From assembly GCA_016840465.1 (NCBI GenBank), contig JAEOSH010000012.1, positions 15,535-47,534 of the forward strand: DNA of 32,000 bases, in the 5' to 3' direction. This DNA comes from Candidatus Baldrarchaeum yapensis (lineage in GTDB: Archaea; Asgardarchaeota; Baldrarchaeia; Baldrarchaeales; Baldrarchaeaceae). Position numbers and translations under genes: made by a program. Below are positions 10,973 through 14,003 of the stretch, in pieces (within the stretch, counting starts at the first letter, position 1; every line of letters begins with the position of its first letter). Below the pieces are notes generated by a model. The model was not told the origin of the DNA. It did no database searches and saw only the letters and a list, made by a program, of their open reading frames with translations.

Positions 10973-11983
10973 TCACACTTCGAATCTCCTATCGATAATT
11001 TCTTTACAATCCGGGCCAGTCCCTATGAGCGTAACTGGGAGCTTAAGTTCGCTTTCTATCTTTTCTACAAATTCCTTTGCTTGAGTGGGAAGTTTTTCGT
11101 ACTCCTTTATCCCTCTTGCTTCCGGAAATAGGACATCAAGTTTTGTGAGCGCTATTTGGGTTGCACTATTAAGCATAATGGCTCGCTTTGCTAGTTTGAA
11201 GTTGAAAGGCGCAGCACGCCTCTCTCTGCCGGTAACCGTCGCCACCTCGTACCATCCCCTCCTCTTAGCCTCCTCTTTACTTATCTCACCCTCTAAGGGC
11301 CCGCCACCCACCCTCGTTACATAGGACTTAAAGACGATGATCACTTCATCGACCTTCTTCGGCCCTAGTCCAACATCAGCGCAGGCGGACGCTGCACATA
11401 CGTCTTTTGATGTCACGTAGGGATACGTTCCGTGATATAGTGATAGAAACGTGCCTTGCGTTCCCTCGACGATCACAACATCCCCTCGATCAACTGCCTC
11501 ATTAACCTCTAGTGGAACGTCGGTTATATACGGCCGAAGCTCCGGAATTTGTTCAGCAACTTTTACAACCCTCAGTGCCCGATCGGCATTTGCCGGACCG
11601 CACCCCGATCCGGTGGTCCCTATTTTCCCGGACAGATGCTTTTCCCTTCTATCCCGATCTATGTGCGACTGTTCTATTATCGCACAGTATTTATCTATTC
11701 CCACCCTGCCCTCCGCACCGGTCACTTCTACCTCCTTGAGAAAAACCTCGGGATTTACAAGCACTCCTGGTCCTATGAGTAGCCGTGCCTTTTCATAGAC
11801 AAATCCACTCGGTATCTGTCTGAGTTTATACGTTTTACCCCTGTAGTGAACAGTATGCCCGGCGTTCGGTCCGACCCCAGCTCTCACAACTATGGATGCC
11901 TTATCCTTCAACGCTAGGTAAGATACTATTTTTCCCTTCCCCTCATCTCCGAAAAATCCGCCGACCACGACCGTACACACCAT
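10973..11983 (-). CDS. purA: Adenylosuccinate synthetase (short archaeal form)
   Basis: GGFFGDEGKGK, GPNAGHT, IGTTGSG, EGTQG, HGTYPYVTS, TVTGRERR, LTKLD. Confidence 0.98.
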   Translation of the reverse strand: MVCTVVVGGFFGDEGKGKIVSYLALKDKASIVVRAGVGPNAGHTVHYRGKTYKLRQIPSGFVYEKARLLIGPGVLVNPEVFLKEVEVTGAEGRVGIDKYCAIIEQSHIDRDRREKHLSGKIGTTGSGCGPANADRALRVVKVAEQIPELRPYITDVPLEVNEAVDRGDVVIVEGTQGTFLSLYHGTYPYVTSKDVCAASACADVGLGPKKVDEVIIVFKSYVTRVGGGPLEGEISKEEAKRRGWYEVATVTGRERRAAPFNFKLAKRAIMLNSATQIALTKLDVLFPEARGIKEYEKLPTQAKEFVEKIESELKLPVTLIGTGPDCKEIIDRRFEV

Positions 11984-12137: not shown

Positions 12138-12144
12138 TTTAAAG
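12138..12144 (+). promoter_or_regulatory. Putative TATA box for the C/D sRNA
   Basis: TTTAAAG about 25 nt upstream of the start of the 5' stem arm (12167), matching archaeal TATA-to-TSS spacing. Confidence 0.45.
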
Positions 12145-12166: not shown

Positions 12167-12247
12167 TGATCCGGCAAAGGTAAGGATGAATACTTCCGGC
12201 GCCGATTTGGTGACGATAAGGCATTTATCTGAACCTTTGCCGGATCA
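12167..12247 (+). ncRNA. Box C/D 2'-O-methylation guide sRNA
   Basis: Perfect 15-bp inverted repeat (12167-12181 / 12233-12247) enclosing box C AGGATGA (12183-12189), 12-nt guide, D' CCGA (12202-12205), C' GTGACGA (12210-12216), 12-nt guide, and D CTGA (12229-12232). Canonical kink-turn geometry. Confidence 0.88.
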
Positions 12248-12350
12248 TCTCGGCGTAACGTAATTTGGGAGGTATTACTTTCATCCGAATCAATTTTATA
12301 ATGCAAAGCAAGGGATGTTTGAATAGTTTTGATCCAAGGTGCACGTTGAC

Positions 12351-14003
12351 ATGAGAACAAGATACATTTTCGTAACCGGAGGAGTGATGTCCGGTATAGG
12401 AAAAGGCGTCACTACCGCCTCCATCGGGAAACTTTTCCAGTTTCGCGATTACACCGTTGACGCCATTAAGATAGACCCTTATCTCAACGTGGACCCTGGA
12501 ACTCTCAATCCCATCGAGCATGGGGAGGTGTTCGTAACAGAAGAGGTTTGGGAATTCGAGCCAGTGAAAGGAATGAAATTCAGAATCTCCGAAATAGATC
12601 AGGACTTCGGAACCTATGAGAGATTTCTGGGAAAAAACATTCACCCTAGGAATAATATCACGAGTGGACAGGTATACCTATCGGTAATTCTCAAGGAGAG
12701 GGCGGGGGAATTTCTCGGAAAGACTGTGCAAATAATTCCGCATATAACGGACGAAATAAAAAGGAGAATACGGCAGGTCGCCGAAGAGGAACAACCCGAC
12801 ATACTCATGGTTGAGGTTGGTGGAACGGTCGGCGATATAGAAGCAATGCCATACCTAGAAGCAATTAGACAATTTAGACTTGAGGAGCCTAGATGGGCAA
12901 CCGCATTAGTCCACGTTACCGTCGTTCCTCGACTAAAAACCGTCGGTGAGCATAAGACGAAGCCGACCCAGCATAGCGTGAAACTATTACAAGGAATGGG
13001 TCTACAGCCCGATGTAATAGTTTGCAGAAGCGATACGTTTCTCTCTGATAATATTAAAAGGAAGATAAGCCTATTTTGTAATGTTCCCCCAGAAGCGGTT
13101 ATTTCAAACCCCGATCTTGAATGTGTCTATGAACTGCCACTAATATTCGAGAGGCAGGGACTTGGAGACTACCTCTGTAAGTTATTAAACCTAGAGCCTC
13201 GCAAACCTTACACCGAGAAATGGAAAAAAGTGGTATCTAGGTTTAAGAATGCGAGAAGAAAAGTACGTATAGCACTTCCCGGAAAATACACAGCAATCCA
13301 TGACAGTTATATATCGATAAACGAGGCATTATCGCACGCGGCGGCATATTTGGACGCAAAAGTAGAGATATCATGGCTTGATTCCGAAAAATTCGAAAAG
13401 GATAAGAAATCTATGGAAACATTGAGCGAATATGATGGAATTCTGCTAACGCCAGGATTTGGAAGTAGGGGAGTGGAGGGAATGATCCTTTCTGCGATTT
13501 ATGCGATGAAAAACGACGTGCCATTTTTAGGAATATGTTTTGGCGCTCAACTATTTTTCGTGGCATTCTGCAGGGAATATTTGGGACTGGAAGGAGCGAA
13601 CAGTACAGAAGTTGACCCGAATACAAAGTTCCCGGTCGTGGATTTACTTCCGGAACAGAAGCGCATAACTGCCAAGGGCGGAACCATGAGATTGGGAGGG
13701 CATGAGGTAATAATCGAGGAGGGTACAAGATTATACGACGCCTACAAGAGAAGAGTGGTGATCGAGAGATTCCGTCACCGTTACCACATAATAAGAGAGT
13801 TCGCAAAGAGGGGAGAGGAGTACGGCCTCGTGATATCCGCATACGACAAAACCGGTCGGATAATAAACGCAATAGAACTTGAAGATGCAAAGTGGATGGT
13901 TGGCGTTCAGTTCCACCCGGAGTTTAAGAGCCGACCGGATGCACCATCACCCATATATCTAGCATTTGTTAAAGAATGCTTAGAGTACAGAAGTAAGAGG
14001 TAA
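12351..14003 (+). CDS. pyrG: CTP synthase
   Basis: YIFVTGGVMSGIGKG, KIDPYLNVDPGT, GGTVGDIE, KTKPTQHSV, GICFG (catalytic Cys), ERFRHRY, QFHPEF. Has a short insertion (VWEFEPVKGMKFRISE) before DQDFGTYERF. Confidence 0.98.
   Translation: MRTRYIFVTGGVMSGIGKGVTTASIGKLFQFRDYTVDAIKIDPYLNVDPGTLNPIEHGEVFVTEEVWEFEPVKGMKFRISEIDQDFGTYERFLGKNIHPRNNITSGQVYLSVILKERAGEFLGKTVQIIPHITDEIKRRIRQVAEEEQPDILMVEVGGTVGDIEAMPYLEAIRQFRLEEPRWATALVHVTVVPRLKTVGEHKTKPTQHSVKLLQGMGLQPDVIVCRSDTFLSDNIKRKISLFCNVPPEAVISNPDLECVYELPLIFERQGLGDYLCKLLNLEPRKPYTEKWKKVVSRFKNARRKVRIALPGKYTAIHDSYISINEALSHAAAYLDAKVEISWLDSEKFEKDKKSMETLSEYDGILLTPGFGSRGVEGMILSAIYAMKNDVPFLGICFGAQLFFVAFCREYLGLEGANSTEVDPNTKFPVVDLLPEQKRITAKGGTMRLGGHEVIIEEGTRLYDAYKRRVVIERFRHRYHIIREFAKRGEEYGLVISAYDKTGRIINAIELEDAKWMVGVQFHPEFKSRPDAPSPIYLAFVKECLEYRSKR

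Follow-up and report, generated by a model that had tools for sequence, protein, structure and literature searches.

The window analysed here is a stretch of 32,000 nucleotides from Candidatus Baldrarchaeum yapensis (contig JAEOSH010000012.1), and unless stated otherwise the locus coordinates below are positions in it. Within this window, a gap of 355 nt separates purA, the adenylosuccinate synthetase gene (10973-11983, minus strand; Pfam PF00709, E 9.5e-84), from pyrG, the CTP synthase gene (12339-14003, plus strand; Pfam PF06418 and PF00117). The gap contains an element at 12167-12247 with the features of an archaeal box C/D sRNA; purA is its divergent upstream neighbour and pyrG lies downstream on the same strand as the element. 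A TTTAAAG sequence at 12138-12144 on the plus strand, about 26 nt 5' of the first base of the element, is a candidate archaeal TATA box, a role suggested by the usual archaeal distance from TATA box to start. Further sRNA genes in the genome likewise carry A/T-rich boxes 10-25 nt upstream. A second TATA-like box (TTTTATAA) was read between the element and pyrG.

The initial annotation had described a C-guide-D'-C'-guide-D layout with two 12-nt guides. When we read the sequence, the complete order stem-C-guide-D'-C'-guide-D-stem was found at 12167-12247 on the plus strand, with two spacers of exactly 12 nt. From 5' to 3', the plus strand carries the 5' strand of a terminal stem (UGAUCCGGCAAAGGU, 12167-12181), the 3-nt kink-turn bulge AAG (12182-12184), box C AGGAUGA (12183-12189), the 12-nt D' guide AUACUUCCGGCG (12190-12201), and box D' CCGA (12202-12205), which follows box C after exactly 12 nt. 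These are followed by the 4-nt D'-C' spacer UUUG (12206-12209), which is the loop of the k-loop, box C' GUGACGA (12210-12216), the 12-nt D guide UAAGGCAUUUAU (12217-12228), box D CUGA (12229-12232) and the 3' strand of the stem (ACCUUUGCCGGAUCA, 12233-12247), which pairs perfectly with 12167-12181. Boxes C, D' and C' are each one base off consensus; the sole difference of box C from RUGAUGA is at position 2, inside the bulge.

The kink-turn of boxes C and D is as previously described, with G12185.A12232, A12186.G12231, U12187.U12230 and G12188-C12229 next to the 3-nt bulge AAG. The corresponding pairs of boxes C' and D' are G.A, A.G, C12214.C12203 and G12215-C12202, so that this k-loop keeps its G-C pair as well as both tandem G.A pairs. 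The change from U.U to C.C in C'/D' had been regarded as a matched one, but it was not established as covariation, as C.U is found there in the orthologues of family f8.

The whole 2.27-Mb genome was searched with a strict pattern requiring four boxes and spacers of 11-13 nt. Four matches were obtained, compared with none in the reversed genome and none in the shuffled genome. The predicted fold of the element had a minimum free energy of -44.1 kcal/mol (z = -6.4), and none of 200 shuffled sequences folded equally well. No family reached its gathering score in an Rfam search over the element (best score, 19.4 bits vs 45), and the sub-threshold matches over it were all to C/D families and all on the plus strand.

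For the target search, a complete 23S rRNA (G000:C59:1031-4195) and the 3' half of the 16S rRNA were available, so the scan for competing targets in 16S covered that half. The 16S on the 23S contig (G000:C59) is cut at the contig start. The 23S match (G000:C59:1031-4195) spans 3165 nt compared with the 2987 positions of the archaeal model, indicating approximately 180 nt of extra sequence. Alignment of the guides to the organism's own rRNA had been proposed in the initial annotation as a check, and the D-guide target that it named, AAAUGCCUUG, is present in the 23S at 2164-2173. Positions 3-12 of the D guide pair with this stretch through nine Watson-Crick pairs and one G.U pair, while positions 1-2, beside box D, are mismatched. 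Applied to the D guide, the +5 rule selects A2166. In an ungapped comparison with E. coli rrlH 1895-1965 (56 of 71 positions identical), which served to check the numbering, A2166 corresponds to E. coli A1938, in agreement with the earlier prediction. A1938 is the last A of AAA, beside U1939. We take this last A to be yeast A2281, on the basis of the yeast sequence and of the published placement of the snR13 sites. According to that placement (Gigova et al. 2014, PMC4174444), the snR13-guided Am2280/Am2281 lie just 3' of m5C2278 in the H70 stretch, which is the same stretch as that of the D site and agrees with the proposed equivalence to yeast Am2281.

The D' guide had been tentatively assigned to the adjacent helix 71. 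Its best match was found instead at 23S 2130-2140 (CGCCGGGAGUA), 30 nt upstream of the D target, where it pairs over 11 bp (10 Watson-Crick and one G.U). Position 5 of this guide faces G2134, equivalent to E. coli G1906, at the H68/H69 junction that forms the base of helix 69. Guide position 5 is Watson-Crick paired in both guides, and the two predicted methylation sites, A2166 and G2134, are 32 nt apart.

Taken singly, the guide matches were weak compared with shuffled guides: the D' match was equalled in 340 of 5000 shuffles and the D match in 702 of 5000. When the two were considered jointly, only 2 of 5000 shuffled guide pairs placed both guides within 60 nt at these scores. The 9-bp duplex of the D guide is inside the efficient range of 8-10 bp reported by Yang et al. 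(2016), cited from PMC7089733. Targets other than 23S were also considered and rejected. Matches to tRNAs reached at most 9/12 and none was better than that to 23S, and matches of at least 11/12 in the whole genome occurred at chance numbers (24-28 per guide).

Conservation of the D guide was evaluated in 400 genomes of the phylum with a pattern that required its core AGGCAUUU to be preceded by a C-type box (GANGA) and followed by a NUGA box, with the register unchanged. The core was present in 25 of the 400 genomes, and the reversed-pattern control gave no match. The host's own family is represented in the genome collection by the host genome, a MAG, alone. Two-guide orthologues with a near-identical D' guide were found in all four genomes of the same order (Baldrarchaeota). 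Two-guide orthologues were also detected in Asgardarchaeum (abyssi), in one MAG labelled Desulfurococcales and in nine metagenome contigs, and the D' guide is conserved in Baldrarchaeota, Asgardarchaeum and MAG L053. The location in the purA/pyrG gap is kept in three families (f1, f2 and f8), namely in all four Baldrarchaeota and in four f8 genomes. The three longer Baldrarchaeota loci (L050, L052 and L054) additionally gave a match to alaS on the upstream side of purA. One relative, G001, has a 23S of its own with both target sequences, and its D guide pairs with that 23S at 12 of 12 positions. The D guides of relatives pair at 11-12 of 12 positions.

The orthologues also differ from the host sRNA in ways that keep the structure. 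The pair between G6 of box C and C1 of box D is G-C in the host and in L053, and it is changed to U-A in nine orthologues from Baldrarchaeota, Asgardarchaeum and f8 (AUGAUUR with AUGA). The terminal stems of the orthologues have wholly different sequences, with pairing in every copy. Over six aligned pairs, 75% of cells were paired, compared with 63 ± 3% in shuffles, none of 500 of which reached 75%, and in five of the six pairs both partners vary. The D' box of the orthologues is CUGA, whereas that of the host is CCGA. The f8 orthologues share the C' variant GUGACGA, and the D'-C' spacer measures 3-8 nt among the orthologues.

Comparison with the relatives brought out further differences in the rRNA and in pyrG. 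The 23S of a Baldrarchaeota genome (L060, G001:C116) has an insertion of about 580 nt between the equivalents of host 23S 2155 and 2156 (E. coli approximately 1927/1928). The insertion, probably an rRNA intron, is situated exactly between both sRNA target sites, and the host genome is without it. Every Baldrarchaeota copy of pyrG is split by an insertion of 34 nt that separates the codons for ...IDPY from those for LNVDPG (L052:5055-5088, JAEOSG010000004.1; the same split in L026-L029, L049, L050 and L054). This length is not divisible by 3. The insertion contains a hairpin of 9 bp with a short helix and a 3-nt bulge at its flanks, and it resembles a small intron, of the kind spliced by an endonuclease, within a protein-coding gene. 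The host pyrG is uninterrupted.

The terminal stem of the host sRNA, which the initial annotation had not mentioned, is a perfect helix of 15 bp, compared with 4-8 bp in the other sRNAs of the genome and 3-10 bp in the orthologues. Each of its arms is unique in the genome; an origin from a repeat or mobile element was rejected, as the arms were found nowhere else in it. No other perfect inverted repeat of 15 bp that encloses a loop of 40-60 nt occurs in the interior of a contig of the genome. The two further repeats of this type (G000:C38:10-98 and G000:C74:27-115) are both found no more than about 100 nt from a contig end and are probably assembly artefacts. A reading of the long stem as a BHB or circularisation signal was also considered and rejected: the perfect 15-bp helix has no bulges and is therefore not a BHB processing motif. 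A metagenome scan for variants of the host's own lineage (CCGA and GACGA boxes) found none, and a relaxed scan found nine orthologues, all with stems of 3-7 bp. Stem ends have been reported to stabilise di-sRNPs (PMC5062973), and the most economical reading of the 15-bp stem is that it acts as a stronger clamp for a k-turn with slightly off-consensus boxes.

The 5' strand of the stem holds a 9-nt perfect complement (AUCCGGCAA, within 12169-12177) to helix 71 at 23S 2171-2179, a site that abuts the D-guide target. Such a match within 23S 2120-2190 was obtained in only 7 of 5000 shuffles, the observation being a post hoc one. The stem might open, so that this strand would provide an accessory antisense element beside the two guides, or a switch coupling stem melting to rRNA binding. 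It would then parallel, in archaea, the 'extra base-pairing' by which some eukaryotic snoRNAs are boosted. We regard such a role as very unlikely. The helix 71 complementarity is absent from the orthologues, and simultaneous pairing of stem and guide is disfavoured because the stem is at the box D end of the guide and the helix 71 site is 3' of the target. The same strand (AUCCGGCAAAGG, 12167-12181) is closely like the D' guide UUAUCCGGCAAGG of another sRNA of this genome (G000:C9:10793-10805), both being antisense to helix 71. Guide duplication and chance are both possible origins of this likeness.

Genes for the core proteins of box C/D RNPs, fibrillarin (G000:C64:1307-1987; PF01269, 349 bits), Nop5 (G000:C64:2098-2775; PF01798, 259 bits) and L7Ae (G000:C67:55831-56109; PF01248, 109 bits), are encoded in the genome, those for fibrillarin and Nop5 being adjacent on the same contig. 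With this machinery, its motif layout, its complementarity to the organism's own rRNA, and its conservation with synteny and covariation, the locus at 12167-12247 on the plus strand is very probably the gene for an archaeal dual-guide box C/D sRNA. It is a genuine and conserved but ordinary one, without novelty in its mechanism.

A looser scan identified at least 12 other well-formed dual-guide sRNAs in the genome, whose guide pairs match nearby 23S sites. Three of them (G000:C9:10787-10837, plus strand; G000:C30:2024-2071, plus strand; G000:C69:19037-19084, minus strand) target 23S 2120-2182, comprising H68, the H69 loop, H70 and H71. One D' guide among these three selects G2131, 3 nt from G2134. 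Judging from the guide sequences, the subunit interface at H68-H71 is the site of a dense cluster of predicted methylations in this genome, as in hyperthermophilic crenarchaea.

We infer transcription of the sRNA, assembly of the RNP and the methylation itself to proceed as follows. The transcript would measure about 81 nt with the full stem, or about 55 nt for the core. Boxes C and D would form a kink-turn closed by the terminal stem and boxes C' and D' a k-loop, L7Ae would bind both, and a Nop5 dimer with two fibrillarins would assemble on the two motifs. Each 12-nt spacer would then pair with nascent 23S rRNA, and 2'-O-methylation would be directed opposite the fifth guide nucleotide upstream of D or D', at A2166 in the H70 stretch and at G2134 at the base of H69. 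The short distance of 32 nt between the target sites makes it probable that the RNP also keeps the H68-H71 region of the subunit interface together during folding.

This last activity could be the principal one, with the C/D sRNP acting mainly as an rRNA folding chaperone that tethers the H68/H69 junction to H70, and with a degraded D guide no longer efficient at methylating A2166. The D guide has lost two pairs beside box D that are kept in relatives (12/12 in G001 vs nine Watson-Crick pairs and one G.U in the host). The two targets, 32 nt apart, belong to one folding domain, and the guides of several further sRNAs in the genome fall on this stretch of 60 nt. However, a duplex of 9 bp is still inside the 8-10 bp quoted as efficient, and the register kept across 25 genomes argues for selection on the methylated position. 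The same ...UUUAU-CUGA ending is found in the metagenome orthologues L065 and L066. Chaperoning and methylation are moreover compatible, and we consider it unlikely that the sRNP is mainly a chaperone.

Regulation of pyrG in cis is a far less probable function. The hairpin would then be a leader hairpin, or an L7Ae-binding k-turn controlling translation, and not a free-standing guide RNA. It does share its strand with pyrG and precedes that gene by approximately 105 nt, its linkage to pyrG is kept in three families, and L7Ae has been reported to bind k-turns in mRNA leaders (PMC5539422). The distance to pyrG, however, ranges from about 105 to 300 nt among the orthologues, and the second TATA-like box stands between the element and pyrG. 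Conservation falls on the two guides complementary to rRNA and not on the stem or flanking sequence, and the homologues in Sulfolobus and Ignicoccus were found as small RNAs. A chance occurrence of C/D-like motifs in an intergenic palindrome has a negligible probability: although the boxes are individually short and three of the four are non-consensus, it is effectively refuted by the pattern controls (no matches in the reversed and shuffled genomes), the guide shuffles (joint placement in 2 of 5000), the register search in the phylum, and the synteny of orthologues that covary.

The dual-guide C/D sRNA at this locus shares its general design with archaeal dual-guide C/D sRNAs such as M. jannaschii sR8 and those of the Rfam families sR9, sR15, sR17 and snoPyro_CD, namely RUGAUGA/CUGA boxes, 12-nt guides, a k-turn together with a k-loop, and nearby rRNA targets. 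The 8-bp stem end of M. jannaschii sR8 aids di-sRNP assembly (PMC5062973), and the 15-bp stem of the host sRNA is about twice as long as the longest among the other sRNAs of its own genome. The Rfam archaeal C/D families scored 14-19 bits on the host element, compared with gathering scores of 36-45, and the low scores reflect that those families are defined by other guides. A literature search did not find a catalogue of Asgard C/D sRNAs, which is weak evidence as the slash in 'C/D' is unsearchable.

Dennis et al. (2015; PMC4644070) single out helices 68-71 as a hot spot of methylation that is conserved in archaea. Two sRNAs listed in that study and detected by RNA-seq, Sac-sR125 of Sulfolobus acidocaldarius and IHOsR109 of Ignicoccus hospitalis (PMC4644070 Additional file 1), have 23S A2204 and G2172 as predicted targets in the alignment numbering of that study (PMC4644070). 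As A2178 is stated there to be A1912, these positions are E. coli A1938 and G1906. Sac-sR125 and IHOsR109 are thus like the host sRNA in their predicted target pair, A1938 and G1906, and they are also like it in box order and in the D-guide core AAGGCAUUU, whose register is unchanged. In both crenarchaeal sRNAs, as in the host, the H68/H69 junction is the region to which the D' guide is antisense (guide GUACUCCCGGAG in IHOsR109, AUACUUCCGGCG in the host), and the sequence of this guide tracks each organism's own H69 stem. They differ in the terminal stem, which is short or lacking in Sac-sR125 and IHOsR109 and 15 bp long in the host, and in box variants, Sac-sR125 having CAGA as its D box and the host CCGA as D' and GUGACGA as C'. 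We conclude that the host sRNA is a new Asgard member of the already described Sac-sR125/IHOsR109 family. An Asgard (Baldrarchaeia-order) genome thereby gains a guide RNA that had not been annotated, and both of its predicted targets are assigned. From Sulfolobales and Desulfurococcales to several Asgard families, a single dual-guide sRNA has been retained with an unchanged pair of targets, and within Asgard it stays at the purA/pyrG locus.

The initial annotation had suggested that a modification shared with eukaryotes is guided here by an Asgard sRNA. The Asgard sRNA and the site shared with yeast stand, but a special link between Asgard archaea and eukaryotes does not, as the same two-guide sRNA occurs in crenarchaea. 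Its presence in S. acidocaldarius and I. hospitalis indicates that the modification is common to archaea at large and not specific to Asgard archaea and eukaryotes. Yeast snR13 and human SNORD15 (Rfam RF00067, clan CL00045) guide 2'-O-methylation on the same H70 stretch CCAAAUGCC by the same RNP chemistry, whereas these eukaryotic RNAs are longer and without the guide for the base of H69. The SNORD15 model scored 11.1 bits on the host element, compared with a gathering score of 75, and matched the guide and box D only. This weak similarity is accounted for by the shared rRNA target and does not imply common descent. With its broad conservation, its constant locus within Asgard and a site that is methylated via snR13 in yeast, the sRNA offers a reasonable test case for the question whether single snoRNAs are descended from individual archaeal sRNAs.
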